Below are positions 6,578 to 64,000 of a stretch of 64,000 nucleotides of DNA, in pieces. Position numbers and translations under genes: made by a program. The notes beneath the pieces were generated by a model. It saw only the letters and a list, made by a program, of their open reading frames with translations, was not told the DNA's origin and searched no databases. Origin of the DNA: a virus (lineage: Duplodnaviria > Caudoviricetes); IMG/VR virus record IMGVR_UViG_3300037400_003286, one strand, 5' to 3'. Numbering within the stretch: the first letter of the stretch is position 1; every line of letters begins with the position of its first letter.

Positions 6578-7339
6578 TTAGCTGTTTCTCATTTCTTCAA
6601 ATATGTTATATAACTCATTGTGTTTGTCCATTACTTCATTCGCAAGTTCAGAACAACCTTTTCGAATCCAGTTTTTGACACTTGCAGAAGAAACCTTATT
6701 TTCTTCAGCAATTGTATCAACCTTCTTCTGATTTATATATCTCTCTTTCATAACGATCCTCAAATGATCAGGAAGATAATCCATACATTCTATGGATGCG
6801 TCGTATATATCAGATAACACCTTTGATTTTGTATATGTCTTGAACTCTCCACCGTTAAACGACATATTTTCGATCTCCTCGTCAGAGAACATATCATCAA
6901 ACAAGCATCCTTCATCAGATGATACTATTCTTTCATGAACATCTGAAAGATCTATATTTACTGTGTTTATCTTACTCTTATACCCACCAGACCTGAAATA
7001 TGTCACAGCATCATTATGTGCAATCCTATACATCCATGTTGAAAACTTACCAGCATCATCCTTGAAACTGTCTATTCTGAAATAAACATGTTCCATCGTT
7101 ATACTCAGTATGTTTTCAGTATCTTCCTTGCTTCCTGTCATACCGTAGATATAAGTCCTAAGCCCCCATGAACATCTTTTCATAAGAGCATTGAAATTTT
7201 TCTCACTATGGTCATCAATGAATCTCTGAGCTAGAAGCTGAATATCCTTGTTTTCTTCCTGAATCTTCTTCTTTTTCTCAGCAGGATCTACAACATGACC
7301 AGGATTAAATATACTATTTTTGGACATAGGCTCGCTCAT
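6578..7339 (-). CDS. RNA polymerase sigma factor, ECF-like (sigma70 regions 2 and 4)
   Basis: Region-2-like FNALMKR..SKEDTENIL..GKFSTWMYRIAHN; region-4-like LPDHLRIVM..TIAEENKVSSASVKNWIRKG. Confidence 0.85.
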   Translation of the reverse strand: MSEPMSKNSIFNPGHVVDPAEKKKKIQEENKDIQLLAQRFIDDHSEKNFNALMKRCSWGLRTYIYGMTGSKEDTENILSITMEHVYFRIDSFKDDAGKFSTWMYRIAHNDAVTYFRSGGYKSKINTVNIDLSDVHERIVSSDEGCLFDDMFSDEEIENMSFNGGEFKTYTKSKVLSDIYDASIECMDYLPDHLRIVMKERYINQKKVDTIAEENKVSSASVKNWIRKGCSELANEVMDKHNELYNIFEEMRNS

Positions 7340-7341
7340 AA

Positions 7342-7656
7342 TTACTTCTTTTGTGGTTCAATAGGTACAAAATATTTAAGGAAATTCTCCTTGTTGTTGA
7401 TTACACCCATCAACTGTACAACAACACGATAAGGAAGATATGACAAATCCCTTATAAGCTCATTAATTTGTGCAATAGGCATGATTCTGTTTTCAGCCTG
7501 ATCGATCTTATCAAAGAACTTCTGTGCATCCACATAAGCTACATCAGCCAATACTTTCTTAAGATCATTTACAAACAAATCGGATAACTTATAGTGTTGT
7601 CCATAATTCATTACCTGAGGTTCAGGCATTTCTGAAGATTTTGCAATATTATTCAT
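7342..7656 (-). CDS. Hypothetical protein
   Basis: 104-aa ORF tightly packed between helicase and sigma. Confidence 0.75.
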   Translation of the reverse strand: MNNIAKSSEMPEPQVMNYGQHYKLSDLFVNDLKKVLADVAYVDAQKFFDKIDQAENRIMPIAQINELIRDLSYLPYRVVVQLMGVINNKENFLKYFVPIEPQKK

Positions 7657-7666
7657 TTCTGTAAAT

Positions 7667-9451
7667 TTAATTATTTGGTACTATAGATGTTGGTGGTATC
7701 ACCTGTATTCTTCGTATGAAATCATCAGAGAACATTTTATATGAATTCTGCATCAAATAAGAATAGCATCCATCGAATATAAATGTTACACACCAATCGT
7801 GTTCGTTTCTTATTCCTCTACCTACTCCCTGTAGAATCGATATTGCTGTTGTATTGCTATACCATTCTGGGTTTATATTTTTCTTAGCTTTTACGAATTT
7901 GTCAGCCAGGCTAGGGTATGGAACCTTCATTATAATCTGGAACCTACAAAGATCATCATCGAATGACAAACCTTCTATAAGACTTGGGCCGACAAGAACC
8001 TTATCGTTACAATATTTGAAATATTCTATAGCCTCTGTCTTACCCTTTGTATCATCATATAATATCAACCTCTGTCTTACAGCAGGACCTACATAATCAA
8101 TCAGTTGCTTTGCGAACTGATAGCTTCCAGTTTGTATTATACCTCTCTTACCAGCGTACATATTTATCGTTGCTTCTATCAACTCTGCAACTTTAGGAAG
8201 GTTCTGTTCCTTCTCCTTATATGATAGTCTGTAATCTGGAATATAGAATATAGGCGAATTTGTAAAATCGAATGTCGAAGGTATATCTATAGAATGATAA
8301 TTACTGAACGAACATTCTTTTGCAAACGCATCAGCTTCACCTATTGTGGCAGACATATACATCTTGTTTTTACAATGAGCATGAAAATGCTTATTCATAA
8401 GATAAGACTCATTGATACAGTTAAATGTTATATTGTCTGGTGTAGAATCATCATAATTCTTTACAAGATTCTGTATTCCTACACTTTTTATAATCTCAAC
8501 ATAATCAGAGAATGAACTTATATGATTTTCAAGAAATTCACAATTGTATACGAGGTTTTTATCTTCTTTTGATAATGGTTCATTCTGATCCGTTTTCAAA
8601 GAAATATCTCTTTTGATTGTATCTATACCATCGTTCAACACTTTCATCTTTGAATTATATTCTTCAAGATAATCAAGTATAGAAGCATTGTCAGATGTTG
8701 CTACAATTTTCCTTCTGATAAGTTCAATTTCATCAACTATAGTGTCATTATCAAGACCAGACTCAACGATATTCTTCATTTTTCCTATATCGTCTGGTTT
8801 CATTGCTGGAGAAAAATGATTCTGAACTATACCGACAAGCTTGTGTGCCTCATCACATATAGTAAAATCTCTTTCATTAAAAGGTGCTTGCTCTCTTAAA
8901 AGAGCCTTTACAAGATTTTGCTGAATTAACCAGAACGAATATGTACAAACAAGAAGATCAGCACGCATGGCTTTTTCTCTTTCCTGAATATATGGGCATT
9001 CACATGCACATTCAGGAAACTTCTTCATTATATCACCATACGACTTACATCCTTTTAGCTTACATGCACCAGAACTGAAATTAAAGCCATTAACAAGGCA
9101 CTGGTAATTTTGCTGTCCTTTAATAACACTCCAATTCGGGAAATATTTTTCAACATCTCTCGAATACTGATCAATAAGGTTTAGATCCGATGCCAATATA
9201 TAACCAGTCATATCATAGAATCTGGTTAATACTCCAGCTATGGTTAAAGCTGTGATACTCTTACCAGATCCAGTAGGAGCAGAAATAATAACATTATCTG
9301 TTCCGTTCAACCAATTATCAACAGTTGTGGCTACGGCTTCTTTCTGATTTGGTCTGAATCTGAATGTCGGACCGAAAGACTCCATAGCAACAATATCAAT
9401 CTGCTCATTGATCTTATCTATTCCTGGTGATTTAATATTATTCTTATCCAT
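7667..9451 (-). CDS. DinG/XPD-family SF2 helicase
   Basis: Walker A APTGSGKS, DEAH box, Cys cluster typical of the Fe-S domain, QGVGRGIRNEHDW motif VI. Start moved to ATG 9451 because a promoter motif lies inside the longer ORF call. Confidence 0.85.
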   Translation of the reverse strand: MDKNNIKSPGIDKINEQIDIVAMESFGPTFRFRPNQKEAVATTVDNWLNGTDNVIISAPTGSGKSITALTIAGVLTRFYDMTGYILASDLNLIDQYSRDVEKYFPNWSVIKGQQNYQCLVNGFNFSSGACKLKGCKSYGDIMKKFPECACECPYIQEREKAMRADLLVCTYSFWLIQQNLVKALLREQAPFNERDFTICDEAHKLVGIVQNHFSPAMKPDDIGKMKNIVESGLDNDTIVDEIELIRRKIVATSDNASILDYLEEYNSKMKVLNDGIDTIKRDISLKTDQNEPLSKEDKNLVYNCEFLENHISSFSDYVEIIKSVGIQNLVKNYDDSTPDNITFNCINESYLMNKHFHAHCKNKMYMSATIGEADAFAKECSFSNYHSIDIPSTFDFTNSPIFYIPDYRLSYKEKEQNLPKVAELIEATINMYAGKRGIIQTGSYQFAKQLIDYVGPAVRQRLILYDDTKGKTEAIEYFKYCNDKVLVGPSLIEGLSFDDDLCRFQIIMKVPYPSLADKFVKAKKNINPEWYSNTTAISILQGVGRGIRNEHDWCVTFIFDGCYSYLMQNSYKMFSDDFIRRIQVIPPTSIVPNN

Positions 9452-9454
9452 CTG

Positions 9455-9469
9455 TTGCAAATATACAAC
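9455..9469 (-). promoter_or_regulatory. Host-type (Bacteroidota sigmaA -7) promoter GTTGTATATTTGCAA
   Basis: Contains TAnnTTTG; identical 15-mer at 12931 and 38215. Confidence 0.75.
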
Positions 9470-9488
9470 TTTTTCTTGAAACAAGAAA

Positions 9489-9519
9489 GGATCGATCCTA
9501 TTTTATTTTGGATCGATCC
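9489..9519. terminator. Hairpin/terminator between ligase and helicase
   Basis: GGATCGATCC-N11-GGATCGATCC; the arms are palindromic, so they pair with each other. Confidence 0.55.
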
Positions 9520-9543: not shown

Positions 9544-12881
<3,338 letters not shown>

Positions 12882-12930
12882 CTTTTATTTTTGTTTTTTT
12901 ACGTGAGTTATTTATTGATATTTTTGTCTG

Positions 12931-12945
12931 TTGCAAATATACAAC
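12931..12945 (-). promoter_or_regulatory. Host-type (Bacteroidota sigmaA -7) promoter GTTGTATATTTGCAA
   Basis: About 50 nt upstream of the MFS start; identical to the 9455 and 38215 copies. Confidence 0.75.
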
Positions 12946-13367: not shown

Positions 13368-15161
13368 TTATACTGCTGCTTCTGGTGCAGGTTCTGGTTC
13401 AGTTGATATTTCCGCTTCTGGTGCAGGTTCTTCTCCGCCAGCTTCAAATCCTCCACTAGCTTCTTCTCCACCGAAACCTCCAGATTCTCCACCTCCAAAT
13501 CCGAATTCGGATCCTCCACCAAATCCTGTTTGTTGGCCAGCACCACCCTGATTTACAGCATTCTGAGCTTCCTCGTCTTCCTGTTTCTTCATCTTGTCAA
13601 TAAGCTTCCATTCATCATCATTGATGTCGAGATACTTCTGACACAGATATTTCATTGGGAATACTGGCTTACCGTCTGCTCCATTCAATCCAGATAATGT
13701 CTGAATAATCTGAGAAGAAATCTGAAGAACAGCATTTTCCTTTGCAAGCTTGAATATATTTTCCTCTACGAAATCAAGACCAAGAGAATTTTTAATGACA
13801 TCATTTCCAGCAAACTCTGGATTATGAAGTGAGAACTGTAACCATGTTGGTTTTATTACAATCTCCTGGTAAATATCTCTAATCTGATTGATGAAAAGCG
13901 AGAAACGATATTCCTCTCTTGTCATGTTATTATTATCAGGTATTGCTGACATTTCGTTTCCGTCGAAGATCATATTGAAACGATCTTTTGGAAGTTTTGA
14001 CTCAATCATGAATCTCTGCCAGAACCATTTCAACTGTTCTGTTGAATTCATATCGTGTCCCTCAATACCAATCTCACTTATTTCTGTTGTTGTTCCTTCC
14101 TTTGAAGGAAACACCATAGTCTTAGCGAAACTGAACTTAGGTTGTCCATTTACGGTGATTTCACCAGACATATTATCAACAACGATGTCTTCCTTATAAT
14201 AAGCTTCAAGTTGTCTTAATCTTGTCTTAGCCACCTGATCGGACTCTGTTCCGATAGGAACAACAATCTTGATTCTCTTCTGTGCGTTCTGTATGTTCCA
14301 TATGATACGACTGTTCTCTAGTGTTCTAAGCATATTGAAAGAACGTATAAGTCTTTCACAATATGAGAAGTGAGACACGAAGTTTGTCTTAGCCCATGAA
14401 ATATAAATCACGTTTGTATCAAGAAGCTCACGTTCATTCTGCTTATCACCCTTGTTTATGATCCATACTTTATACTCTTGTCCTTTAGAGTTAATTCTTA
14501 TCTCTGGCTGAAGAGTGATTGGATCAAGTTCCTTGAAACCTATAATATCAGAGGCAATGTTCTTATTTGATTTCTTATCAGAGTAGATAATCTCAAATGC
14601 AAGGAATCCATCAACAAGGAATTTCTTCACATAATGCCAAGCATCATTTGATTCGTTGAAATGGAACATGTGATAAATTCTTCTATATGCAGCATTTATC
14701 TCATCAACAATCTTCTTTCCTGACTCTGGCTTGAGTATAGTTCTCAACTGCTTTGTGTTTGGATATGCAAAATAGTGCATCTCATCATTGACAATCACTT
14801 CGTCAGCAATTGTATCCAAAACATAGTCAATCTCACCCTGCAAAGCAAACTTACGAAGAAAATCCCTTCTCATCTGATAAGTTTGATCGTAGAATGCTAT
14901 AAATTTATTGTTACCAGCAAGATTCTCATATTGTCTCGTAAACAAATCATCACCAGCAAACATTGAACGGTTGACGTTTCCTAATCCTGTATCGTTAGCG
15001 GCATCGAAATCATCATTAGTTCTGATTTGCTTGATAAGAGAACTGTTCCATTTTATACCAAGAGCACTAAGGTTGAGAAGGTTTCTCTCAAACGCTCTGT
15101 TTGCTCCCTGGTTTGCCTGTGCAATACTCGAACCAAGAGATTTTAATATATATCGAGGCAT
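13368..15161 (-). CDS. Portal vertex protein (T4 gp20-like)
   Basis: EIDYVLDTIADEVIV, FLVDGFLAF, GFKELDP, FNMLRTLENSRIIW, TREEYRFSLFI resemble gp20 motifs; Gly/acidic C-terminal tail. Confidence 0.9.
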   Translation of the reverse strand: MPRYILKSLGSSIAQANQGANRAFERNLLNLSALGIKWNSSLIKQIRTNDDFDAANDTGLGNVNRSMFAGDDLFTRQYENLAGNNKFIAFYDQTYQMRRDFLRKFALQGEIDYVLDTIADEVIVNDEMHYFAYPNTKQLRTILKPESGKKIVDEINAAYRRIYHMFHFNESNDAWHYVKKFLVDGFLAFEIIYSDKKSNKNIASDIIGFKELDPITLQPEIRINSKGQEYKVWIINKGDKQNERELLDTNVIYISWAKTNFVSHFSYCERLIRSFNMLRTLENSRIIWNIQNAQKRIKIVVPIGTESDQVAKTRLRQLEAYYKEDIVVDNMSGEITVNGQPKFSFAKTMVFPSKEGTTTEISEIGIEGHDMNSTEQLKWFWQRFMIESKLPKDRFNMIFDGNEMSAIPDNNNMTREEYRFSLFINQIRDIYQEIVIKPTWLQFSLHNPEFAGNDVIKNSLGLDFVEENIFKLAKENAVLQISSQIIQTLSGLNGADGKPVFPMKYLCQKYLDINDDEWKLIDKMKKQEDEEAQNAVNQGGAGQQTGFGGGSEFGFGGGESGGFGGEEASGGFEAGGEEPAPEAEISTEPEPAPEAAV

Positions 15162-15180: not shown

Positions 15181-15191
15181 ACTATTTATCT
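15181..15191 (-). promoter_or_regulatory. Late promoter AGATAAATAGT
   Basis: About 20 nt upstream of the portal ATG. Confidence 0.8.
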
Positions 15192-16424: not shown

Positions 16425-16888
16425 TATGTCTTTCCTATCTTTATTTCCTCAATCCTGATACGATTATTGATAGCAAATATAATACCATCAATTGTCTTGA
16501 TAGTATTATCAAGATACCCAAGATGTGACTCCATGATATCTATGAGATATTTATCATCTGAAAGCTGAGATTCAATCTGTTCTCTTATCGCCGATTCTGT
16601 TGAAAACATAAATGTTGTAGCACCTTGTGCTGTCTTCATAAGACGAATCTCTTTATACAGTCTTGCTGAGTTTTCTTTGTACTTTTTTGAATATTTAGCA
16701 ATAGTGGCCGCAAGAGAATGATAATTCTCTACGGCCTCCTGTCTTTTGGTATAAACAACACCCTGAAGATTGACAACCGTATCAATAGATTTAAGGCTAT
16801 TGTTCATATCCTCTATCCATTTGATCCAATAATCACGTCTTTCTGTAAATTTGTTTTCTATAGCTTCAAATTTATTCTCCATCATCAA
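16424..16888 (-). CDS. uvsY: Recombination mediator (UvsY-like)
   Basis: Helical, about 150 aa, directly downstream of uvsX; C-terminus IKTIDGIIFAINNRI resembles UvsY. Confidence 0.6.
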   Translation of the reverse strand: MMMENKFEAIENKFTERRDYWIKWIEDMNNSLKSIDTVVNLQGVVYTKRQEAVENYHSLAATIAKYSKKYKENSARLYKEIRLMKTAQGATTFMFSTESAIREQIESQLSDDKYLIDIMESHLGYLDNTIKTIDGIIFAINNRIRIEEIKIGKT

Positions 16889-18448: not shown

Positions 18449-18479
18449 ATTATACGTTAAATGAGCGAAATTGATTAAA
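18449..18479 (-). promoter_or_regulatory. Bipartite promoter TTTAATC-N16-CGTATAAT (putative middle promoter)
   Basis: Exact match; heads the DUF2693-uvsX-uvsY-gp4-gp2 operon. A late-like GGATAAATAC lies at 18491-18500. Confidence 0.8.
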
Positions 18480-18545: not shown

Positions 18546-18556
18546 AGATAAATAGT
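18546..18556 (+). promoter_or_regulatory. Late promoter AGATAAATAGT
   Basis: 23 nt upstream of ATG 18580. Confidence 0.8.
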
Positions 18557-19173: not shown

Positions 19174-19184
19174 TTAATTTTAAG

Positions 19185-51899: not shown

Positions 51900-52852
51900 T
51901 GAAGAAAAGTTTAACAAACAAGATATTCATCTATGCCTTCCTTTTCTTGTATGCTCTTGTCGCATTCATATCGTTCTGTCATGCGATAGAATTCTTCGAT
52001 ATAGGTAACACACATTGGATGTCTGTAATGCTTGCATTCGCATTTGAGCTTGGTCTTGCTGTGTGCCTTGCATCTATTCTGATAGGAACAAACAAAAGGA
52101 ACAACATAGCATGGGTTCTACTCACTATACTTGTACTTGTGCAGGTGATAGGTAATACATATTCTGTATTCAAATACATATCTGAATCTGGATATGACTA
52201 TTACAATTATCTTGCAAAGCCTATGCTGTTCATGATAGAGGAAGTCAGCCAGGAAACTGTACAGATTATCATATCATGGATTATGGGTGCTATTCTTCCT
52301 ATCGTTGCACTTCTTATGACTGAAATGGTAGCTAACGGTATAAAAGAAGAACAGATGATAGAAGACAAGCCAGAAGAAAAAACAGAAGAGATCGTTCATC
52401 AAGAGGAAAATCATTCTAAGATAGTTCCTCCAGTTATTCCTCAACCAGAACCTCTTGAAACAAAGTATGAAGATGAAAAAGCGGAATCAAATGAAGATGA
52501 GAATAACGAATCTGATGAACAAGAAGTAATTTTAAATGATGTTGATGACGATCCAGAGGAACAGATAAGTATAGATGAGAAGCCTGAAGAACCTGTTGAA
52601 ACACAGGAAAATGTGGAAGATGTCACTCCTTTTGAACAGAAAAGTGTGATTGAACCAGAAGAAACTACGGTTAAAGATGAGGAAACTCAAGTTTCTGTCG
52701 AGCCTGTAATTGAACAGACTCCTGTAAAAGTCAATGAAGATACATCGAATAAAGAATACGAACTATCAAACGAAAATCACAAGAAATTTGTAGCGATAGA
52801 CAAAGAACCAAAGACGATGTTTGATGAATTGCAAAAAGAAAGCCTGAATTAA
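51899..52852 (+). CDS. Multi-pass membrane protein with long acidic tail
   Basis: Four hydrophobic helices in aa 1-140, then E/D/P-rich low complexity. Confidence 0.75.
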   Translation: MKKSLTNKIFIYAFLFLYALVAFISFCHAIEFFDIGNTHWMSVMLAFAFELGLAVCLASILIGTNKRNNIAWVLLTILVLVQVIGNTYSVFKYISESGYDYYNYLAKPMLFMIEEVSQETVQIIISWIMGAILPIVALLMTEMVANGIKEEQMIEDKPEEKTEEIVHQEENHSKIVPPVIPQPEPLETKYEDEKAESNEDENNESDEQEVILNDVDDDPEEQISIDEKPEEPVETQENVEDVTPFEQKSVIEPEETTVKDEETQVSVEPVIEQTPVKVNEDTSNKEYELSNENHKKFVAIDKEPKTMFDELQKESLN

Positions 52853-53314: not shown

Positions 53315-54754
53315 TTATGCAAATGCTAAATATTTAACTTGAACTGGGAATGGATTTGGATTATAAACAATTACACTTGGGATAAGGTTCTTTACCTCTG
53401 GATAGTTAGGATCATCAGGAATTGTAGTTCTAGCATAGAACTGTCCTACAGTCATCCAGTTGTTAGTTTTTGAAAGATAAGCGCAATATCCTTCAACACC
53501 CATCTGGTCTCTGTGTTCAAGATTTCTCTCGATCGATCTACCACTGTCTGTATATGATATGCTTGAATTTTCCCATTCATCAAGCATTTCTGGTACAACC
53601 TGAGGTATCTCATCGGAATCAATCCAGTCATCATATACTGAATTATGGCTGTAGAATCCCATCCACTTGTTGTAAAGATCCCTATCATATTCGCACTGGA
53701 AAAGATCATTCACGTCAACAATCTTTCTAACAGCAACGAATGTACCATCCAACAGGCATTCAGGAATAGCATAGAATTCCTGTACACGATCAGCAATATG
53801 AGCAACCTTTACGGCCTTCTGTATAGGTTCGATTGCTTCAGTGTTGTACTGAGGATAAACAATGTTCAGTACAATACCTAGCATAGCACCGTTCTTATAT
53901 CTCTTTGAAGGAACATATCTTCTGAAATCCTCGAAAAGATAAATCTTCCTTACATCATTTTCCTCAAGTATTTCGTTAAAGTCCGTATCAAGACAATTAA
54001 GAAGATTGTAAAGTCTTGTATAATCTTCTTTCTTGAGTATTGATGAATATGCATTTATAGCACCAGGTGAATAATTATCAATATTGTTACCCTTAACATA
54101 TCCATCATCCCATCCATAATCATATGAGTGACCATGTTCAATCATCCACTGGTTAATGTAATAGAATATGTCAGTACCGTCTTCTGAATTCCAGAACATT
54201 ACATGGCTTACCCAGAATTCGTAATCAAGCTTAGTTGCAGTGAATACTACATATCCGTCATCAAAAGTAACAGTGATTGGAATTTCCTTTTTCTCGAAAT
54301 AATTATTCATAGCATCTATGAATGTTATTTCCTCATCTATATTTCCAGTACACTTGATAATCTCTATCACTTTGTTACCAGTCTTAAGGTTAAGATACTT
54401 GATAACAAAGAATATCATTCCTTTGTACATCCAGTCTTCATCTTCTGTGATAGGACCGATTATTCTTCCGTAAGACTTCGAGCAATATGAATCACCGAAC
54501 AACCAACCTCTGATATAACAGAACTCATTTGGCTGGAGTATTCTTGAGTTTGATGTGTACTGTGAAAGTCCGACATGTATATCTGACAGATCGATCGAAG
54601 AAAGAACACCGTTGTTGTCTGTTATCTCTCCGCTTGATTCGTTAATGTCGAATGATAGTTCATCGGCAGAATCACCATTGCTACACAGTATATCGGCATA
54701 AATGTATGATTTTGTCGGATTGTTATAATATTTTGAAAAAAGATCCGTTGCCAT
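53315..54754 (-). CDS. Hypothetical late (structural) protein
   Basis: 479-aa ORF downstream of the tail-tube-like gene. Confidence 0.65.
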   Translation of the reverse strand: MATDLFSKYYNNPTKSYIYADILCSNGDSADELSFDINESSGEITDNNGVLSSIDLSDIHVGLSQYTSNSRILQPNEFCYIRGWLFGDSYCSKSYGRIIGPITEDEDWMYKGMIFFVIKYLNLKTGNKVIEIIKCTGNIDEEITFIDAMNNYFEKKEIPITVTFDDGYVVFTATKLDYEFWVSHVMFWNSEDGTDIFYYINQWMIEHGHSYDYGWDDGYVKGNNIDNYSPGAINAYSSILKKEDYTRLYNLLNCLDTDFNEILEENDVRKIYLFEDFRRYVPSKRYKNGAMLGIVLNIVYPQYNTEAIEPIQKAVKVAHIADRVQEFYAIPECLLDGTFVAVRKIVDVNDLFQCEYDRDLYNKWMGFYSHNSVYDDWIDSDEIPQVVPEMLDEWENSSISYTDSGRSIERNLEHRDQMGVEGYCAYLSKTNNWMTVGQFYARTTIPDDPNYPEVKNLIPSVIVYNPNPFPVQVKYLAFA

Positions 54755-54778: not shown

Positions 54779-55327
54779 TTAATTTATATCAAACCTGTTA
54801 TATCTCAGGTTTATACTGAATGTGTTGTATGAAGCAACCGTTGCAGCATAACTAAGATTAAGCTCACTTGTATTTGTAGGTGTTATCTCCCAGAATGTAA
54901 ACTCAAGCATTTGGAATCCAGAATCCGAAAGGAATGCAAGCTTCACTGGTTCCATCCAGCAAGGCTGCTTCTGCTTTGGATCATTCACATAATGAAGGAA
55001 TACATCCATCTGATGCCAGAAGATCCAATATGAAAGATAGCTTTCTGTGAGCTTCATTGTAAGTTTGAGGTTCTTGTCTATCAGTGGTTCAAGTTCTTTA
55101 CCACCGTAGTAAGCAACCTCATATTGTCCTCGTTGCTGTGTTGATAAATCAAGGTTCATTGCTGGGAATACAACACCCTGTACCTGATCGTTCATGAAAT
55201 CAGCAACAGATTCATACGGTAGCCTCATTCTCTGTACCATAGGTGTCCACGTCTGAACAACATCGTCATACCAGAAGTTTGACGGGAAGTAGAACGAAAA
55301 CATCTGAGGTAAATTGTTTAATACCAT
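54779..55327 (-). CDS. Tail tube-fold protein (gp19/gp3-like)
   Basis: VQGVVFPAMN..LKLTMKLTESYLSY..FWEITPTNTSELNLSY..TFSINLRYNRF; late promoter at 55347-55357. Confidence 0.7.
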   Translation of the reverse strand: MVLNNLPQMFSFYFPSNFWYDDVVQTWTPMVQRMRLPYESVADFMNDQVQGVVFPAMNLDLSTQQRGQYEVAYYGGKELEPLIDKNLKLTMKLTESYLSYWIFWHQMDVFLHYVNDPKQKQPCWMEPVKLAFLSDSGFQMLEFTFWEITPTNTSELNLSYAATVASYNTFSINLRYNRFDIN

Positions 55328-55372
55328 CTATTGAGACTTTCTTTTCACTATTTATCTGATCTTACTAATGTA

Positions 55373-56800
55373 TTGAAAACATATAATTTTATAAATTTTA
55401 TAAACTATATAAATTCATTTAAGGGTTAATATTTAACACCTTTGGTGATACAATGTCACCTCTATCTCGTAAGCTAACAATGCTAGCATCTGAGATTTCT
55501 TTTGCTTTTCTCATGATGCCTATAGCACCATTTATATCAGCATTAATTAATTTTCCTGTTGAACTTTTGAACATACCACGTTTTATTCTCCTACCGAGAT
55601 ATTCGTCATGATGTTCCATCGTTTCAAACATTAAATGGTCACACTTTGAAGTATAACTTTCTTCTACTATCTTAAGATTAAGATTAAGATATTTCTCAAC
55701 TTTATAATTCAATATATCAATTAACCTGTTAAACGGAATCGAAACAAAATTCTGGTTATTCCTTTTGCCTAAACTTATATCCTGTTTCCAGTTATTATTA
55801 TGCCCTATACATATAGTTTCAATTTTGTTTTCTAAGCATAACTTAATAATTCTATTTGCAACGGTATGCATGTAATGTTCTATTCTAAGGTTTCTTTTCT
55901 TAGATAGTAAAATAAGTCTTTTACTTGTTTTTCGTTTTTCACCGTTACATTTATTTAACTCAGAAAGAATTTCAGATTTTCTTTTGTTATAATACTGGTT
56001 TATACTTTTTAATGGACCACCCTTAACAACGTATGATATACTTTTGTCGTTTGCAGTTATAGCACATAAATTATTCAAACCAATATCTATACCTATAGCA
56101 GAACCTTTATCAATTTCATTGTCTATATACTTTAAATCTTCATATACTATATTGAATTTTATTTTATCATAAAATTTAGAGAAGGAAATCATATGAACAG
56201 AATCCATTTTTATATGCAAAGGTATCTGTAGTTTATACTGTGTATTAGGGATACGTATTTCATTCTCCTTACACCATTTAGTCCTAAATCTTGATGAATC
56301 TACCTGAACTATATTATATTTCTTTCTCTTATGTAAATAATTAGGTATACAAGGCTTACCTTTAAAGTTAGATGGATTTTTATAATATGATTTCAATGCT
56401 TTCATATAATCCCTCCAGTTCTGTGATACCTGCCTTATAGCATAGGTTTTTGGGCCTATGTCAAGTTTAGAATCCTTATATGCTGGAGTTAATTTTACTA
56501 AATCCCACAACTCCTTAAAAGAATATGCCTTGTATTTTTCATTGTTATTCCTACCTCTAAAATATTCCTGTCTCTGATAATATAATGCCTGATCATAGAT
56601 AGATAAACTATCCTCCATACAACTTAAAAGTTCTGGAGTATTATTTGTTACTATTTGAATTACACTTAACATTATATTATTAGATATTATCGTTTATATA
56701 TTTATCTATATTTTATAAATAAATTTTATTATTTTTTGATTTTATAATCTAAAATATATATTTATGATTTATATAATTTATATGATATTTACTGATTTGA
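55373..56800 (-). mobile_element. IS200/IS605-family solo-TnpB element (no tnpA); left boundary approximate
   Basis: Right end on the minus strand reads GAAT-hairpin-TTTTCAA, as in the IS608 GR/CR arrangement; more AT-rich than the flanks; inserted between two divergent late promoters. Confidence 0.7.
55419..56672 (-). CDS. tnpB: RNA-guided endonuclease TnpB
   Basis: RuvC-I GIDIGLNNL, GHNNNWKQ..LGKRNNQNFVSIPF, VEESYTSKC, RuvC-III INADINGA. Confidence 0.92.
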   Translation of the reverse strand: MLSVIQIVTNNTPELLSCMEDSLSIYDQALYYQRQEYFRGRNNNEKYKAYSFKELWDLVKLTPAYKDSKLDIGPKTYAIRQVSQNWRDYMKALKSYYKNPSNFKGKPCIPNYLHKRKKYNIVQVDSSRFRTKWCKENEIRIPNTQYKLQIPLHIKMDSVHMISFSKFYDKIKFNIVYEDLKYIDNEIDKGSAIGIDIGLNNLCAITANDKSISYVVKGGPLKSINQYYNKRKSEILSELNKCNGEKRKTSKRLILLSKKRNLRIEHYMHTVANRIIKLCLENKIETICIGHNNNWKQDISLGKRNNQNFVSIPFNRLIDILNYKVEKYLNLNLKIVEESYTSKCDHLMFETMEHHDEYLGRRIKRGMFKSSTGKLINADINGAIGIMRKAKEISDASIVSLRDRGDIVSPKVLNINP

Positions 56801-56825: not shown

Positions 56826-56836
56826 AGATAAATAGT
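56826..56836 (+). promoter_or_regulatory. Late promoter AGATAAATAGT
   Basis: 23 nt upstream of ATG 56860. Confidence 0.8.
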
Positions 56837-56859: not shown

Positions 56860-57093
56860 ATGGCTTATTATTTAAGAAAGAAAAAGGTTGTTGATGAATG
56901 TGACGGTGGTTGTGATGTAGCTTGCGCTGCGCCTATGACTGATATTCCAGACGGAATCGGACCAGTCATTCCTGGACATTCTGGTGACAGGTTTGACAAT
57001 ATATTAGGTGCTGGATTTGTCAATACAATACCTATGATGTCAGCAACATCTAAGAAGAAATACAAGATTCGTAAAAGAAAGACGAAACAATAA
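56860..57093 (+). CDS. Small hypothetical late protein with basic termini
   Basis: 77 aa; TAATG overlap with the next gene. Confidence 0.65.
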   Translation: MAYYLRKKKVVDECDGGCDVACAAPMTDIPDGIGPVIPGHSGDRFDNILGAGFVNTIPMMSATSKKKYKIRKRKTKQ

Positions 57094-58469
57094 TGGAAGA
57101 ACAGAAAACACCTTTATACCAGAGATATAATTTCGATAACGTTTTCAACAGAAGCGTTATTGCTGGTTTATTGTACCTTCTTAATCACAACCTAACATAC
57201 GAACAGGTATGGGATGATAATACTGTTGAACAAGTTACAGTACCGTTTGCATATAATTTCGCACATGCAAGAGATCAAAGATTTGCTCAGGATAACTATA
57301 CATTCTTCGGAAGAGAATGTTTCTCCGATAAATTCATAGACGGTAAGTTCGATATGTGTCCAAGATTCGCAATGACATATACTGGTTCTCAGATTGAAGC
57401 ATCAAACATAACAAACAGATTCGTAAAGGGAACATACATGAAGGATGAGAATGGTGTACTTACATCATATACAGCTTTCATGTACTCAATTCCACTTACT
57501 TTGAATTTTGAATTTGAAGGATGGATTGATACACTAGAAACCGCATTCAAAATTGAACAGGCAATCAGAGAAGCATTCTATAAGAATCAGACATTCAATG
57601 TTTTGTATAGAGGAATGAAAATCGGATGCCGTGCTGGATTCCCAGAATCTTATTCTGTCGGAGAGAAAACCGTAAGCTATTCATTCGAATCTGAATCACA
57701 GCTTATCAAAATGAGTTTCTCTCTTGCAATTGAAGCATACCAGCCTTGCTTTGATGAATCTCAGTCTATACAAAGTGAAAAGAAGATTGAATATTTTGCT
57801 TTCGATCCTGCCGTTTATAATAATCACAACACACCGACAAACAAGCAGATAGAATTACATCTTCATCCTATTGATACATCAATATATTACGCTGCTGGTC
57901 AGACCATAGAAATATCATGGGATGCAATATCAAACTCATCTGACGTATATACAATATTGCTTTATTATATAACACCAGACGGTGACAAACATATAATAGA
58001 ATGTTCACTTCGTCAACACAACTTCTTTGACTGGACTATACCAGGAAACATTTCCAATTTCAAACAACCTAATGTTCTGTTCTATGATACCGATGAAATT
58101 CAGATCAAGAAACAACCTAATATCGTTGTCATACCAGAATCAACAGGATATGTCAACAGTGGATGTTTCGGTATATTGGATCCAGGAGAATTTTCAAATG
58201 ACGGATATGTTCAGGTATCATGTGAATATAATGATGCATCATCGAACATAAAAATACACGATTGTTACATTGCTGAAGTATCAAAAGAAGAAGGTGTAAA
58301 ACAAATTTTCTATTATAAAGATACACCTGTTTATGAAGAGTTTGTTGTAACGAATCCGAAACGCTTAAAATACAAAAAAGGTGACTTTGGAACCGAAATT
58401 ACAGTAGGAATCGCATATCCACAAAATATGGAAATTAAGGATGAAATACATAATTTGTTGATAATCTGA
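57093..58469 (+). CDS. Tail terminator/sheath stabiliser (T4 gp15-like) with C-terminal Ig-like extension
   Basis: VTVPFAY..PRFAMTYTG..SIPLTLNFEFEGW..FKIEQAIREAFY; extension YAAGQTIEISWD..FDWTIP. Confidence 0.7.
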   Translation: MEEQKTPLYQRYNFDNVFNRSVIAGLLYLLNHNLTYEQVWDDNTVEQVTVPFAYNFAHARDQRFAQDNYTFFGRECFSDKFIDGKFDMCPRFAMTYTGSQIEASNITNRFVKGTYMKDENGVLTSYTAFMYSIPLTLNFEFEGWIDTLETAFKIEQAIREAFYKNQTFNVLYRGMKIGCRAGFPESYSVGEKTVSYSFESESQLIKMSFSLAIEAYQPCFDESQSIQSEKKIEYFAFDPAVYNNHNTPTNKQIELHLHPIDTSIYYAAGQTIEISWDAISNSSDVYTILLYYITPDGDKHIIECSLRQHNFFDWTIPGNISNFKQPNVLFYDTDEIQIKKQPNIVVIPESTGYVNSGCFGILDPGEFSNDGYVQVSCEYNDASSNIKIHDCYIAEVSKEEGVKQIFYYKDTPVYEEFVVTNPKRLKYKKGDFGTEITVGIAYPQNMEIKDEIHNLLII

Positions 58470-58562
58470 TAGTTACAATTTTACATTTTTATAAAAATTT
58501 TTTGCGTTTTGAAAATAAATAGTAAAAGGATAATTTTAAACATATTTAACACATAATTTTAC

Positions 58563-61500
58563 ATGGAAAAAATGGAAAACAAAACACTCTCTATGGTCAC
58601 GATCGTACCGATTCGTGCCGCAATTGAGAAGCTTTCGCTTTCCGAGTCAAATTCCATAGCCATTCAGAATTTCTGTAAAGAATATAATGAGAAGCTTGAC
58701 AGCGGATTGCACGAGGAACAGATCTGTGAGCAATTTGTGATCGATCTTTCTAAGATTGCAGAATCCGAAACAGCAAAGGCTGTTCTGAATGACGTGAATG
58801 AGGCTGTGAAAGCTAACGAAGCTAACATTAAATTAGCAAACAATGTTTATAATCTTAGCAAAGGATCATGTATGTTCGTTGCTCCTATGATTGAATCAGC
58901 AGTTGTTGATTACATCATAGACAAGAATTCTACTACAAGAGACAATGTGAAGATTAATCTTTCGTTGTTTGAAAGTGACAGCACAGTTCAGAATATTCTT
59001 GAGACATTGCAATATGAGCAATACGAGGAGAAGAACGGAAAGACTCTCGTAAATGCAGAGTTGAAGGAAGCTTTCAAGACCCCTGAAGTAAAGACTTACA
59101 CACAGGAGGAAGTTGACAGAATCCTTAGCGACAAGGTTAATGAGATGGCAGAAGCTGAGAAGAATGTCGAGAAGAAGACAAAGAATATGATCAAGAGTCA
59201 TATCGGCCTCAGTGAAGCAATTACGGCGATTCTGAAAGAAAACAAGAATGAAAAACTTAAGGTATTCTGTGAGCAGTACATTGATGCTCTTAACTCTGGT
59301 AAGCCAGAGGAGCTTCTTTATGAGTCATTCATTTCTGGTATTTCTAATTGGAATTACCTGAGTGCTGTTGACACAGAGCTTTCAGCATTGAAGGACAGAG
59401 TTTCACAATATAAGCAGGACATTGATCTTAAGAAGATTCTTGAGACGATGGCTCAGACTGGTTCATATTATATTGTTCCATTGATCGAGGATGTTGTTGT
59501 TGATTATGTTGAGAACAAGAACATGGCTACACGCGCTATCCTGTTGCAGAGACTTGAAGCATTCGAGTATGATCCATTCGTGCGTGATATGGAGTGCTTG
59601 ATCACAAGAGACCTTTCAATCGAGAATACGGTTTATCTTGGTGAGTCTGTTGAGTATCTTAACAGCCAGGTTAAGACTGAACTTATTTTCTCTCCTGTTC
59701 AGTACATTAAGGAAAATGAGTGTGTATTCAATGTGAAGGGTGCTTACTACGCAAGAAAGGGTACTAACATTGCAAAGCTTACAAAGAATGAGGTTGCATC
59801 ATTAAGTGAGTCGTTCAAGTCACTTTGTAATCTTGTAAATTCAGATAATGTTAAATTCTCTCAGGAACTTAACTCTATCACAGTTTACGGTGGTGCTAAT
59901 ACTTGTGTTATCACTGAGTCAGAGATCACAGTAAATGGCAAGGAAGTTACTTCAGATGAATTGAAGAAACTTATGGAAACAGCTATCGCCATGAGAAGTG
60001 ATGATGCTGAGTTCTACGCTATGTCTGTCGCATTGAACGAACATTACAATGATATTGCTTATATTGATTTTGTTAAGAGAATCGAGGCAAGAGACAACAG
60101 TGGTAAGTCTTGTGATGTATTCAAGCTGAAGGAGAGTATTTTCGTTAATACTACAAATAGCAATCTTGGAAGATCTACTTTCTATCGTAATGTTAATCCT
60201 ATTCAGTGCCGTAAGTATATCAACGAGCATATGGAAATCAATTGCGGTCCTTTGTTCGAGGATGAGCTTCCAGAGCAGGAGAAAGTAGCAAAGGCTATTG
60301 ATGATAAGAAGAAAGAATATCAGGACTATATCGATTCACTTGAGGAGAAGAAAGAAACTCTCCAGGCTATGAAGGATGAGGGTGCTGATACAGATGATAT
60401 TGATAAGGCTATCGACATGATCGATAAGGAACTTGAGGATACAAAATCTGATTTCCTGAAATATCAGAAGGATGCTGACAAGTATCTGAATGGTGATGAG
60501 GATGATGCTGATGATTCTTTGAAGAATGAAGTTCCCGATACAGAGGATGATGATAAGGAAGGATCAGACGATGCTGAAAATAAGGATGGAGAAAACGGTG
60601 AGGACAACGATGATAGCAAAGTCGGTGACGAGCTTGATCCAGACAAGGAGTCGGCAGAGGACATGGAAAAGCCTATCGAGGGTGAACCAGGTGAAGATGC
60701 AGCAGAGACAGAATTCCCAACAGATGATGAGTTTGCTGATGTTGCTGAATATGATCCAGATTTCGATGTTCCTACTGAGGTTGTAAAGACAGAGACAGAA
60801 CAAGACCAGTCAACTGATATTGGCTACGGCAAGTTCCAGATCGTAAAGGTTTCTTACAACAGAAATGTAAAGACTGGTGCTGAGAACGGTCACGGTGAAG
60901 TTATCCTTGTGATTCCTTCAGTTGATGCTAATGGTGATGTACATGATGATATGAGAAAGGTTACTTTCTATCTTGATCAGGACAAGACACCTACCATCAA
61001 TAACGAGTACATGCCTCTTGATATGTACACACAGATTGTTGACGCAATCGTAAACGATCCTCAGACAGAATCAGTTTCGGTTGGTGATGTTAAATCCCCA
61101 GAAACAGATGAAACACTTCCTGCTGAATCAGTAGAGGAGCCAAAGGATGTAGAGAACATCAACGTTGAAGACGCTGTTGCTACTACAGAGCCAGAGGAAA
61201 AGTCTGAAGATGAAATAAAAATAGAAGATACAAAACCAGCAGAGATTCAGGAAACTCCAGCAGAAGTTCAGAAAGCTGATGCAGAAGAGGCTTCATATCC
61301 TATCACTGTAGGTTTGTATCCAGAAGAGATCGCTCCTATCGAGGTATCAGATTTCGAGAAGGATCTTGATGATAAGATGAAGATCGAGCATACTGAGAGT
61401 GAGGCAAATGACGGAGAAATCTGTTTGAAGATCGCTAATAAGGCTCAGGCACATGCTTTGAAGAAGTATTTCCATGAGTGGAAGGCTTACGATGACGATC

Positions 61501-63209
61501 AGTTCTGTTCATTCTTCCCAGAGTTACAGAAGTGCTTCGATAACAAGCCAGCAAATATCGATGTAATGCCAGCAAATGAAAGTGTTAAGATTACTGGAGT
61601 AAAAGCTATCAGCGAAAGCAAGAAAGAGCCTTTTCGTGTAATGCTTCCATGTAACGAGTCGCTTTGTGAATTGTTCGGTATTGAGAAGAAAGGAAACATG
61701 ATACAGTTCCAGGTTGTTCCTGAGAACAAGGATGAAGAGTATAAGATTTATGAGTCTCTTTACAACTATGCAAGAAAGAACAACGGTAACGTTGAACAGG
61801 ATGTTGTAGACTTCCTTGAGAAGTATGGTGACGAATATGGACACCTTTGTGAGAGCAACTACAGCTACAAGCTTAATGTTCCATATAACAACTTCCTTGC
61901 ACAGAAACTTACAGCCAACGGATTCGAGGTTAAGTCTGTTAACGAAAGCATGTCAACAGAAATCTTGAAGGAAGACTATAAGAAAGCAAAGAAGATTCTC
62001 GAATCATTCTATGGTGATGCTGCACCTGTTGAGGCAAGGGATTTTTTTCAATTCCTCAGTGAGAACGTCAGGATCACTGTAAAGGACGAAACGACTGGTA
62101 AGACCGTCGAGATTAATACTGACGACTTCAATGGTAAGAATGAAGGAACAGCAGATAACGGTGTAGCAGCCGATTTCGATGATTCATTCAAGAACGTTAC
62201 ATTTAACCCGCAAGACAGCCTTGCATTCAAGGATGATGAAGAATCAGCCGATGATGAGGATGAAGACAAGGATAAGAAGGATAAGAATGACAAAAACGTA
62301 AGCGATACTAATGAAGGAACTGAAGACGAAAAGTCTGAGAAAACTGAGGATGTCGAATCCAATAAAGAAAATTCCGAGGAAGAACATAACGAGGAAGAGT
62401 CTAAAGAGGATAATGGATCAGAGGATAAAAAGTCAGAAGACGAGAAGCCAAAGAAGAAGTTTAAATTCAAGGTTAAGAAGTCAAAGGCTGACGAATCGCT
62501 GAAACAGGATGAAAAAAATCATCTTAACGAATCAGATTTGAACATTGCGGAACCAAACGTTCTTGACTATGTTAAATGTAAAGACGGAAACAAAGGTCAG
62601 ATTATCTGCAAACAAGCTGATGGTGACTTTATTGTGAACGTCAATGGTCATACTAAGATATATCCAAAGTCTGATGTAGAATTGGTACATGCAAGATTCG
62701 ATCTTGTTGATACTCCATTCAAGTATGACGATGCTACTCTTAGGGGTGTTTACGAAAGCTATGTAAACTGCGGACTTTTTGTTAATAACACTCAGGTTAC
62801 TCCTAATGATTGCAAAGTTCAGCTTCTAGAATTCATGACAGCAAACGACGATGCAGAAATTAACCTAATTATCGAAGGAGAAAAGACAAAAGCACAGAAG
62901 AAGTATATTAGAATCACAGAAAGCCTTGATGAGCTGATCGATCTTGCAAATTATTCAAAGGGTACTATGACTTACATCGTTGAAGGTGTTGAGCAGAAGA
63001 CCGATGTGTTGATTAATACAAGAGATTATCAGACATACATGGTTATGAATGAGTCTACTATCCCTGTCAGAACTCTTATTTTCGATGAGAACGGTGAAAC
63101 TCATATGAGTAATATTCCTGGTGGAAATCTTATGATTTGTGAATCTGAGGATTACTTCAAGCCAGAAAGTGAAAGATTAATGGAGAGTGCTATTGCAGCA
63201 CTTTCCTAA
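58563..63209 (+). CDS. Giant acidic putative prohead core/internal head protein
   Basis: 1548 aa; internal duplication; many L/I/V/M-x-E-S sites; late-like promoter AAATAAATAGT at 58513-58523. Confidence 0.55.
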   Translation: MEKMENKTLSMVTIVPIRAAIEKLSLSESNSIAIQNFCKEYNEKLDSGLHEEQICEQFVIDLSKIAESETAKAVLNDVNEAVKANEANIKLANNVYNLSKGSCMFVAPMIESAVVDYIIDKNSTTRDNVKINLSLFESDSTVQNILETLQYEQYEEKNGKTLVNAELKEAFKTPEVKTYTQEEVDRILSDKVNEMAEAEKNVEKKTKNMIKSHIGLSEAITAILKENKNEKLKVFCEQYIDALNSGKPEELLYESFISGISNWNYLSAVDTELSALKDRVSQYKQDIDLKKILETMAQTGSYYIVPLIEDVVVDYVENKNMATRAILLQRLEAFEYDPFVRDMECLITRDLSIENTVYLGESVEYLNSQVKTELIFSPVQYIKENECVFNVKGAYYARKGTNIAKLTKNEVASLSESFKSLCNLVNSDNVKFSQELNSITVYGGANTCVITESEITVNGKEVTSDELKKLMETAIAMRSDDAEFYAMSVALNEHYNDIAYIDFVKRIEARDNSGKSCDVFKLKESIFVNTTNSNLGRSTFYRNVNPIQCRKYINEHMEINCGPLFEDELPEQEKVAKAIDDKKKEYQDYIDSLEEKKETLQAMKDEGADTDDIDKAIDMIDKELEDTKSDFLKYQKDADKYLNGDEDDADDSLKNEVPDTEDDDKEGSDDAENKDGENGEDNDDSKVGDELDPDKESAEDMEKPIEGEPGEDAAETEFPTDDEFADVAEYDPDFDVPTEVVKTETEQDQSTDIGYGKFQIVKVSYNRNVKTGAENGHGEVILVIPSVDANGDVHDDMRKVTFYLDQDKTPTINNEYMPLDMYTQIVDAIVNDPQTESVSVGDVKSPETDETLPAESVEEPKDVENINVEDAVATTEPEEKSEDEIKIEDTKPAEIQETPAEVQKADAEEASYPITVGLYPEEIAPIEVSDFEKDLDDKMKIEHTESEANDGEICLKIANKAQAHALKKYFHEWKAYDDDQFCSFFPELQKCFDNKPANIDVMPANESVKITGVKAISESKKEPFRVMLPCNESLCELFGIEKKGNMIQFQVVPENKDEEYKIYESLYNYARKNNGNVEQDVVDFLEKYGDEYGHLCESNYSYKLNVPYNNFLAQKLTANGFEVKSVNESMSTEILKEDYKKAKKILESFYGDAAPVEARDFFQFLSENVRITVKDETTGKTVEINTDDFNGKNEGTADNGVAADFDDSFKNVTFNPQDSLAFKDDEESADDEDEDKDKKDKNDKNVSDTNEGTEDEKSEKTEDVESNKENSEEEHNEEESKEDNGSEDKKSEDEKPKKKFKFKVKKSKADESLKQDEKNHLNESDLNIAEPNVLDYVKCKDGNKGQIICKQADGDFIVNVNGHTKIYPKSDVELVHARFDLVDTPFKYDDATLRGVYESYVNCGLFVNNTQVTPNDCKVQLLEFMTANDDAEINLIIEGEKTKAQKKYIRITESLDELIDLANYSKGTMTYIVEGVEQKTDVLINTRDYQTYMVMNESTIPVRTLIFDENGETHMSNIPGGNLMICESEDYFKPESERLMESAIAALS

Positions 63210-63228
63210 AAACAAACTGGATTGAAAA

Positions 63229-63666
63229 ATGGCTATAGATTGGACAACAATTGTTGTGACTATAATTGGTCTTATTGGTAGCGGTGGTATCGGTTCTCTG
63301 ATTGCTCTTAAGTATTCTAAAAGAAAGGCTAAGACTGAAGCAAATTCAGCAGCCAATCAGGAACAGGCTGAAAGAATAGATTTGGGTGACAAGTATGTTA
63401 ATCAGATGCTTGCTATGCTTGAAAAACTTCAATCAGCACAGGATCAGAATCTAGCAATGAGTAAGGTTAACAGCTACGAAAGAAAAGAATCCTGGGATGC
63501 TGTTGAAAAAAAGATGACGGAAATTCACGATGACATTGTAAACGTAAAGAGTGAAGTGTCAAGTATTGTCCTGTACTTGAATGGCGGTTACAGACAATAT
63601 AAGGCAGAGCATCCAGAGCTTAAAGCGTTAGATGTAATTTCTGAAGAATCTGAAAGCAACGATTAA
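63229..63666 (+). CDS. Single-TM coiled-coil protein (holin-like candidate)
   Basis: DWTTIVVTIIGLIGSGGIGSLIAL followed by a basic patch and coiled coil. Confidence 0.55.
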   Translation: MAIDWTTIVVTIIGLIGSGGIGSLIALKYSKRKAKTEANSAANQEQAERIDLGDKYVNQMLAMLEKLQSAQDQNLAMSKVNSYERKESWDAVEKKMTEIHDDIVNVKSEVSSIVLYLNGGYRQYKAEHPELKALDVISEESESND

Positions 63667-63678
63667 TGTTTTAAATAT

Positions 63679-63719
63679 AAACAAAGAGACGGGAGAAAAA
63701 TCTTCCGTCTCTTTGTTTT
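63679..63719 (+). terminator. Intrinsic terminator
   Basis: AAACAAAGAGACGG-loop-CCGTCTCTTTGTTTT. Confidence 0.85.
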
Positions 63720-63747
63720 AATCGTTTTTATAAAAAATACGTATAAT
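63717..63747 (+). promoter_or_regulatory. Bipartite promoter TTTAATC-N16-CGTATAAT
   Basis: Exact match, 25 nt upstream of ATG 63773. Confidence 0.8.
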
Positions 63748-63772
63748 AATATAAACGAAGAACTTTAAACAG

Positions 63773-64000
63773 ATGTCTACAAAATTACAGGAAAAACTGA
63801 GATGTCAGAAACGTGGAGAGGAATTTGTTGACGAAACACTTAGCAGTATAGGAAGAACACCTGAATCACAGCATTATGTAAAGAACTCAGTATTGCTTGC
63901 TGAAATACTAAAATGTAAGAGAGAGAACAACGGACAGGCGAGCGATGAATTGGCTAAGATGTTTATACAGATTGCAACAAAGCTTTCAAATAAGCTTAAA
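63773..64000 (+). CDS. Late-transcription sigma factor (T4 gp55-like), 5' part only, truncated by the window edge
   Basis: Not in the ORF track. Manual translation MSTKLQEKLRCQKRGEEFVDETLSSIGRTPESQHYVKNSVLLAEILKCKRENNGQASDELAKMFIQIATKLSNKLK; HYVKNSVLL..ELAKMFIQIATKLS resembles gp55 NYVNNKELL..IGLAIMLIAEGLS. Confidence 0.75.
   Translation, partial: MSTKLQEKLRCQKRGEEFVDETLSSIGRTPESQHYVKNSVLLAEILKCKRENNGQASDELAKMFIQIATKLSNKLK

Follow-up and report, generated by a model that had tools for sequence, protein, structure and literature searches.

Three promoter classes and two phage sigma factors suggest a sigma relay in a T4-related jumbo phage of Bacteroidota

How would a T4-related phage of Bacteroidota order the expression of its genes? 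The question is raised by a 64-kb stretch of DNA from the IMG/VR virus record IMGVR_UViG_3300037400_003286 (Caudoviricetes), called here the window, in which a gene for a sigma factor of the extracytoplasmic function (ECF) type and the beginning of a gene similar to the T4 late sigma gp55 are found together with three classes of putative promoters. The window is densely coding, has ~34% G+C and contains T4-type portal, head-closure, DNA-end-protector and baseplate genes, UvsX, two helicases and a NAD-dependent ligase. We take it to be part of the genome of a T4-related jumbo phage of an anaerobic gut Bacteroidota. To our knowledge the developmental programmes of Bacteroidota phages have hardly been studied, and a literature search found no published promoter scheme for those related to T4. 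We propose a sigma relay in which the host core RNA polymerase would be passed from one sigma to the next in three steps, the ECF-type sigma reading the second promoter class; to this sequence-based reading we give slightly better than even credit.

No close DNA relative of the window was found among GenBank phages, IMG/VR gave no exact match, and a scan of JGI metagenomes yielded only contigs of 1.6 and 2.0 kb. The statements on the genome outside the window rest on three IMG/VR contigs, G1 (3300012983_000031, the closest relative, 220 kb, 60% complete according to CheckV), G2 (3300021431_000095, 96 kb, 21% complete) and G3 (3300021431_000080, 164 kb). The window is collinear with G1 from 39 to 107 kb, in reverse orientation and with 31-90% protein identity, and also with G3. 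One end of G2 (5-130) overlaps one end of G3 (1-126) by 126 nt at 100% identity, and both contigs evidently derive from a single phage genome of ~260 kb or more; the three phages referred to below are the window, G1, and G2 plus G3. An alignment search with gp55 retrieved G1 and G2 only as relatives, and one with the sigma a further contig of 47 kb. Long ENA/Logan contigs, of up to 323-329 kb, also encode the sigma or ORF151 (described below). When IMG/VR was scanned with the class 2 promoter pattern described below, multiple matches per contig appeared in G1, G2 and G3 only, and gp55 was absent from all seven of the long single-match contigs that were checked.

The ECF-type sigma (6578-7339, 253 aa) is encoded by the third gene of a 4.3-kb operon on the minus strand. 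It is preceded by a DEAD/ResIII-type DNA helicase (7667-9451; phrog_2488, 2e-108), the first gene of the operon, and by the conserved ORF104 (open reading frame; 7342-7656), and directly followed by ORF151 (6118-6573), the successive gaps between these four genes being 10, 2 and 4 nt. ORF225 (5214-5891) is the last gene and, like ORF104, has no assigned function. An intrinsic terminator with a 14-bp stem and a T-run (5177-5210, minus strand) ends the operon, and no convincing terminator was found inside it. A helicase start at TTG 9484 was considered and rejected, the start being ATG 9451.

This operon is headed by a promoter of class 1, TTTG/TAnnTTTG, at 9452-9469 (minus strand), 6 nt before the helicase ATG. 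The complete 18-mer, GTTGTATATTTGCAACAG, is repeated identically at 12928-12945 (minus strand), where it heads an MFS transporter (11706-12881) and the NAD ligase (9544-11694), and with one mismatch at 38212-38229, where it abuts a late box (38202-38212, the pair on the minus strand) upstream of a second DNA helicase (36604-38175, phrog_16). With up to three mismatches allowed the window has 3 sites against 0.14 expected. Their core TATATTTG, which forms the -7 box of the sigma operon at 9458-9465 and occurs three times in the window within an identical 14-mer, fits the -7 element of the Bacteroidetes sigmaA, TAnnTTTG (TAHHTTTG), with its G at -5 and an upstream TTTG at -33 (PMC6847099). Class 1 also heads the equivalent helicase-ORF-sigma operon in G1 and G3, two contigs in which TTTG-N19-TA(A/T)CTTTG is found in dozens of upstream regions; the early region of G1 has ~17 full copies of TTTG-N19-TAnnTTTG.

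The helicase ATG lies 6 nt past the G of the -7 box in the window (9449-9469) and 5 nt past it in G3 (~35530-35556). Since this G is at -5, the leader of the sigma-operon mRNA would measure 1-2 nt, and the first gene of the operon is predicted to be conserved as essentially leaderless. Between 170 and 215 kb of G1, the early promoters are near-identical cassettes of ~60 nt, ~17 in number and placed before small ORFs, built of an UP-like/-33 part TTTAACTAAAATAATTTGG, N19 and CGTAACTTTGCA; ~30 copies of the palindrome GTAATGTCAATGACATTAC are found in the same region. Many early genes of G1 (170-212 kb) have a conserved GTATTAACCAACAAA ~20 nt upstream of the start codon, which may be a translation-initiation or 5'-untranslated region signal, the host making no use of Shine-Dalgarno sequences. 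The MFS transporter that opens the early operon 9544-12945 (minus strand), followed by the NAD-dependent ligase, is unusual cargo for a lytic phage.

Is the 253-aa protein really of the ECF type? Pfam finds Sigma70_r2 (2e-9) and r4_2 only, with no match to region 3, and the protein also matches phrog_1740. The AlphaFold2 (AF2) model, built with 20 homologues, has two helical domains, sigma2 (~19-116) and sigma4 (171-252), separated by a disordered linker (121-166), so that neither Pfam nor the model gives a region 1.1 or a folded sigma3. The top Foldseek matches of the model were sigmaE, sigmaW, sigmaH, sigmaL and AlgU, the best structural matches being E. coli sigmaE, B. subtilis sigmaW and M. 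tuberculosis sigmaH and sigmaL (among them 1or7 and 5wur), with a template-modelling (TM) score of 0.77-0.81 to region 2 of sigmaE. The general model TIGR02937 is passed with 58.5 bits (cut-off 42.9); the thresholds of the curated ECF subfamilies (Sig70_bacteroi1, SigW, SigX, RpoE and others) are not reached, all scores being far below, though the best NCBIfam subfamily matches are ECF types. Its homologues in a protein atlas are found in viruses only. From sequence and predicted fold we read the protein as an ECF-type sigma of a divergent, virus-specific branch. The claim of the original prediction that an ECF sigma lies in an operon under a host-type promoter is upheld on both counts, by the Pfam, phrog_1740 and AF2 results and by the 18-mer at 9452-9469.

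The promoters of class 2 have a bipartite structure, with the short consensus TTAATCGTTTT-N11-(C/A)GTATAAT. The 21 sites compared from the window, G1 and G2 give tTTTAATCGTTTT-N11-(C/A)(G/A)TATAAT as consensus, followed by AAT(G/A)TA(A/G)AGG, the spacing being fixed and the start codon usually found 24-31 nt past the -10 box. The pattern TTAATC-N15-17-CGTATAAT has five sites in the window, with 0 expected. The one at 63718-63747 (plus strand) is the promoter of the gp55-like gene, as had been claimed for a TTTAATC-N16 element at this place, and class 2 precedes gp55 in the window, G1 and G2 alike. The terminator hairpin of the preceding gene (63683-63719, plus strand) abuts its -35 box, and G1 and G2 have the same layout. 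On the minus strand, the promoter at 18449-18478 heads a WYL_2 gene (ATG 18436) and UvsX (16872-18098), and is also found in G1, and that at 35732-35761 heads three genes with no assigned function (35515-35703, 34654-35508 and 33685-34650) in an operon that has a class 2 promoter in G1 too. On the plus strand, 50137-50166 heads 50198-51223 (phrog_36717, no assigned function) and is kept in G1 and G2. The remaining site, 47232-47261 (plus strand), is 188 nt upstream of the gene starting at 47450, a position kept in G1 (54058-54088) and G3 (259-288); the interval 47232-47449 contains after the promoter only a 9-codon ORF and an A/T-rich tract, and a small RNA or a long leader might be transcribed from this promoter. 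In G1 class 2 also precedes a family-B DNA polymerase (N-terminal part), a gp41/DnaB-like helicase and an anaerobic ribonucleotide reductase (NrdD). By analogy with T4-type phages this is a set of typical "middle" genes, as expressed there before the late genes.

The gp55-like gene itself starts at 63773 (plus strand), and the window holds the first 76 of its ~148 codons (63773-64000), the rest being beyond the window end. The 76-aa fragment alone gave no match. Its full-length relatives (148 aa, 92% and 72% identical) match phrog_234, the late sigma transcription factor, at 4e-18 and 2e-18, their best PDB match is T4 gp55 (7d7c_F, E 0.02), and with them tblastn reaches the annotated gp55 of T4-like cyanophages. 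Homology of this ORF to gp55 had been set beforehand as a test of the original prediction; the matches of the 92%-identical relative to phrog_234, 7d7c and cyanophage gp55 show it to be a true gp55 homologue. In this clade gp55 ends in a conserved SLSDNIY(N/S)I tail (relative loci L001:5001-5447 and L002:5001-5447), and T4 gp55 has its clamp-binding tail at the equivalent C-terminal position. No other protein of the window, G1, G2 or G3 has the SLSDNIY(N/S)I tail, and an attempt to find a C-terminal clamp-binding tail common to gp55 and other proteins found none.

Class 3 consists of a single box, GATAAATAG, that is similar to the T4 late promoter. The word AGATAAATAGT, with at most one mismatch, has 13 sites in the window against 3.8 expected, and 14 of the 20 sites of [AG]ATAAATA are located 10-50 nt upstream of a start codon on the same strand (null mean 0.3). 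Single-element late promoters of the TATAAATA type are thus found upstream of virion genes, in agreement with the earlier claim that structural genes follow a late box, and their positions are conserved in the relatives. The portal gene (13368-15161; Portal_T4, 2.5e-47) has its box 21 nt upstream, at 15181-15191 (minus strand), and the connector, tail and baseplate operon 38314-47075 is headed by the one at 38286-38296 (plus strand). Other boxes on the plus strand are those at 24-34 (upstream of 59-310 and a 1622-aa ORF), 18546-18556 (upstream of 18580-21113), 21203-21213 (upstream of large ORFs from ~21242 to 33668), 51541-51549 (upstream of 51576-52852) and 56826-56836 (upstream of 56860-58469), together with variants at 47397-47407 (upstream of 47450-48196) and 58513-58523 (upstream of a 1548-aa ORF, 58563-63209). 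The minus strand has a further box at 55347-55357 (upstream of 54779-55327) and a variant with one mismatch at 36584-36594 (upstream of 36054-36560). The very large ORFs behind class 3 are presumably fibre or tail genes.

How would these elements work together? In all three phages each sigma gene has a promoter of the preceding class, class 1 for the ECF sigma and class 2 for gp55, and orthologous genes are found behind class 2 and class 3 in the window and its relatives. With the sigma wiring and the class 2 and 3 positions conserved, what a relay requires at the DNA level is present. In a first step host sigmaA would read class 1 at the head of the early operons, including helicase-ORF104-ECF sigma-ORF151-ORF225, an operon whose layout is observed and whose timing we infer. 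The ECF-type sigma would then direct the polymerase to class 2, which the Bacteroidota sigmaA should be unable to read, and the DNA-metabolism and recombination genes would be expressed together with gp55. Finally gp55, by homology with T4, would read the single-element late box GATAAATAG located ~20-45 nt upstream of the structural genes.

The critical point is whether it is the ECF sigma that reads class 2. In favour of this pairing, no sigma-70-family gene other than that of the ECF sigma and gp55 was found in the window or the ~260 kb of G2 and G3, the ECF sigma belongs to the conserved core of four phages, and its sigma4 region and the -35 box of class 2 are both nearly invariant. The class 2 layout, TTAATC-n-TTTT and, 16 nt after the hexamer, CGTA, parallels the pattern of ECF promoters, tGAAACnTTTt ... 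CGTA (PMC5758882). A fourth promoter class that a second sigma could read was sought by 8-mer enrichment and in unexplained intergenic regions, and none was found.

Several observations weigh against the relay as proposed. The pairing is its weak step, and has a concrete rival. The invariant core of the class 2 -10 box is TATAAT, the ECF-like CG being lost in G2 and G3. Class 2 is missing upstream of the ECF sigma operon in the window, G1 and G3, where only class 1 is found, which means that the autoregulation typical of ECF sigmas is absent. G1 encodes a second sigma among its early genes, a protein of 286 aa that resembles RpoD/RpoS/RpoH and whose gene is preceded by a perfect class 1 promoter of its own. 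In the jumbo phage vB_PcaM_CBB (CBB), TGAAACG-N16-TATAAT has 21 forward sites and GGAACG-N16-TATAAT is found upstream of the gp55-like gene; its single gene with a sigma-70 region 2 is RpoD-like and aligns to the 286-aa sigma of G1 (E 9e-6), not to the ECF sigma. The order early, middle and late is deduced from gene content alone, and some genes have mixed promoters, class 1 with class 3 at 38202-38229 and class 2 with class 3 at 47232-47407. The phrog_16 helicase (36604-38175) has swapped class, being behind classes 1 and 3 in the window and behind class 2 in G1 (63060-63089). Neither gp33 (phrog_254) nor a gp45-type clamp (PF02916) was matched in G1 (60% complete) or G2 (21% complete), a negative of little weight with such incomplete records and with controls that were silent as well. 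Finally, several gene names of the original prediction are unsupported. Of its middle class, uvsX and gp55 stand; the "uvsY" gene encodes the WYL_2 protein and the name was rejected, and the window genes named as "glycosyltransferases" and "baseplate chaperone" have no family or PDB match.

The concrete rival accepts the relay and changes the reader. Class 2 would be read, in the way supposed for Rak2-like phages, by an RpoD/RpoS-like phage sigma of the 286-aa G1 type, presumed to be encoded outside the window, and the regulon of the ECF sigma would be different, small or host-directed. The host-type promoter of the second sigma in G1 agrees with it, and so do the TATAAT core, an element of the group 1-3 type, and the look-alike promoter T(G)AA(A)CG-N16-TATAAT of CBB, a phage with only an RpoD-like sigma. 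However, the 286-aa type is not present in the ~260 kb of G2 and G3, where class 2 is still used, and in G1 its gene is in a poorly conserved early region. Besides, the class 2 spacing is 1 nt off that of CBB, and no separate motif was found that the ECF sigma could read. We consider this rival unlikely.

Very unlikely in our opinion is that class 2 is read by an alternative sigma of the host, or by the host's sigmaA once a so far unrecognised activator of the phage, analogous to MotA/AsiA, has remodelled it, the phage ECF sigma then not being the middle factor. Bacteroidota carry many ECF sigmas, and ORF104, ORF151 and ORF225 of the early operon, none with a known function, would be available as activators. 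However, the class 2 promoters have both a -35 and a -10 box at a constant distance, as is typical where a sigma factor recognises them directly, and a suitable phage sigma is encoded early and conserved. MotA and AsiA themselves (PF09114, PF09010) had no match in G1 and G2, which is weak evidence of absence, the records being incomplete and the controls silent too.

The dual promoters and the class swapped between orthologues, like a timing deduced from gene content, would also agree with promoters that are real and do not act in three ordered steps. Class 1 and class 2 would then be active together from the start, with a single early/late switch as proposed for T4-like cyanophages. Two points speak for the ordered relay instead, the clean functional split among the genes of classes 1, 2 and 3, and the report that the Bacteroidetes sigmaA does not use promoters of the TATAAT type (PMC6847099). 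We give the unordered alternative little probability.

A more elaborate version keeps the ECF sigma as the conserved middle sigma, with some members of the group adding an RpoD-like one (a four-sigma programme), and takes ORF151 as an anti-sigma or timer that would tie the switch from early to middle genes to a membrane event. ORF151 is conserved, with more than 250 metagenome homologues at 55-96% identity, and has a hydrophobic C-terminal helix, a probable tail anchor. It gave no family match and no fold match; tried as an anti-sigma, its model had a predicted local distance difference test (pLDDT) value of 74 and no PDB fold match at E <= 0.001. We regard this version as quite improbable; if true, it would be the first ECF sigma/anti-sigma pair serving as a phage developmental clock.

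The relay with the ECF sigma as middle factor has points in common with several known systems. In T4, sigma70 serves the early genes, MotA/AsiA the middle genes and gp55/gp33/gp45 the late genes. The window phage resembles it in the gp55 homologue, the TATAAATA-like single-element late promoter, the recombination and replication genes found with gene 55 in a pre-late class, and the T4-like virion module (Portal_T4). It differs in that MotA/AsiA were not found in the incomplete records of the relatives and the middle promoters have a -35/-10 pair of their own, not a MotA box; its gp55, with 148 aa, matches only the first ~107 of the 181 positions of the phrog_234 profile. The Bacillus phage SPO1 runs a cascade of sigmaA, then gp28, then gp33/34, each sigma gene belonging to the preceding temporal class. 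The successive replacement of the host sigma by phage sigmas on the host core polymerase would be shared with it, but SPO1 is of an unrelated lineage, the sigmas are not orthologous and the late factor here is a T4-type gp55. With the cellular ECF sigmas (sigmaW, sigmaE) the phage sigma shares the two-domain sigma2-sigma4 build and a promoter layout close to tGAAACnTTTt-CGTA. Unlike them it has a 45-aa disordered linker and an N-terminal extension, no recognisable anti-sigma domain and no autoregulation, and the -10 region of its putative promoters runs into a full TATAAT.

The closest parallel is found in the Rak2-like phages CBB and GAP32, for which Buttimer et al. (2017) described in silico three promoter classes, RpoD-like early promoters surrounding the gene of the phage sigma, a second class to which the gp55-like gene belongs, and ATAAATA before the structural genes (PMC5259590). 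They are, as the window phage would be, T4-related jumbo myoviruses, with host-type early promoters over the region containing the phage sigma, a bipartite second class before the gp55-like gene and genes of DNA metabolism, and a late class of the ATAAATA type; gp33 and gp45 are not detected in them either, as in the incomplete records of the relatives of the window. The differences are the enterobacterial host with its RpoD-type early promoters, the only extra sigma of CBB, which is RpoD-like with regions 2-3-4 and not of the ECF type, and the CBB class corresponding to class 2, whose -35 word and spacing are each off by one base. Iyer et al. (2021) reported that all group 2 jumbo phages, including Lak and Tenacibaculum PTm1, encode minimal sigma and/or RpoD-like sigmas (PMC7824862); in that survey the term ECF has 0 occurrences and no promoter classes are given. 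As the three-tier logic had already been proposed for Rak2-like T4-related jumbo phages (PMC5259590) and sigmas are known as universal in group 2 (PMC7824862), the scheme is not the new hybrid of the original prediction. Of the cascade proposed there, with an ECF sigma replacing MotA/AsiA, the wiring is borne out by its conservation in three phages, and the pairing of the sigma with class 2 keeps the conditional standing given above. The novelty lies in the host phylum, in the exact consensus sequences and in an ECF-type sigma that is the conserved candidate for the middle factor.

The Prevotella Lak megaphages are the nearest named phages with homologues of both sigmas. Both the ECF-like sigma and gp55 have homologues in Lak-A1, where one further region-2 match was also found. 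This phage differs in that the class 2 motif is not enriched in it; upstream of gp55 the motif was found neither in Lak-A1 nor in LR756500. With regard to the host, Shine-Dalgarno motifs are rare (6-14% of genes), sites of the TTGACA/TATAAT type are at chance level (36 against 36.7 expected), and one homologue of ORF151 is located in a metagenome-assembled genome (MAG) labelled Paludibacteraceae, all of which indicates a host among the Bacteroidota. The match of class 1 to the published Bacteroidetes consensus also counts towards this host type.

Some other features of the window are described for completeness. A late-type box lies 26 nt upstream of a TnpB-like gene without tnpA (55419-56672, minus strand; OrfB_IS605 plus Cas12f1-like TNB); the gene is missing at the same site in G1 and is located elsewhere in G2. 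Palindromes GGATCGATCC / GATCGATC recur in intergenic positions beside promoters and terminators (9488-9516, 47381-47390 and ~51510-51535). No match to Rfam and no tRNA was obtained when the window was scanned for them.

The window yields three sharply defined promoter consensuses and two small phage sigmas, and the way in which these are wired is kept in three genomes. The motifs permit promoter-based annotation, and host-phylum assignment, of uncultured jumbo phages from rumen and gut. Should the ECF sigma be the reader of class 2, sigma and promoter would probably work orthogonally to host sigmaA, since the latter is reported not to use TATAAT-type promoters, and would provide a compact expression switch for the engineering of Bacteroides and Prevotella. 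On the same condition, T4-related phages would have solved the "middle" step in at least three ways, by MotA/AsiA, by an RpoD-like sigma and by an ECF-like sigma.

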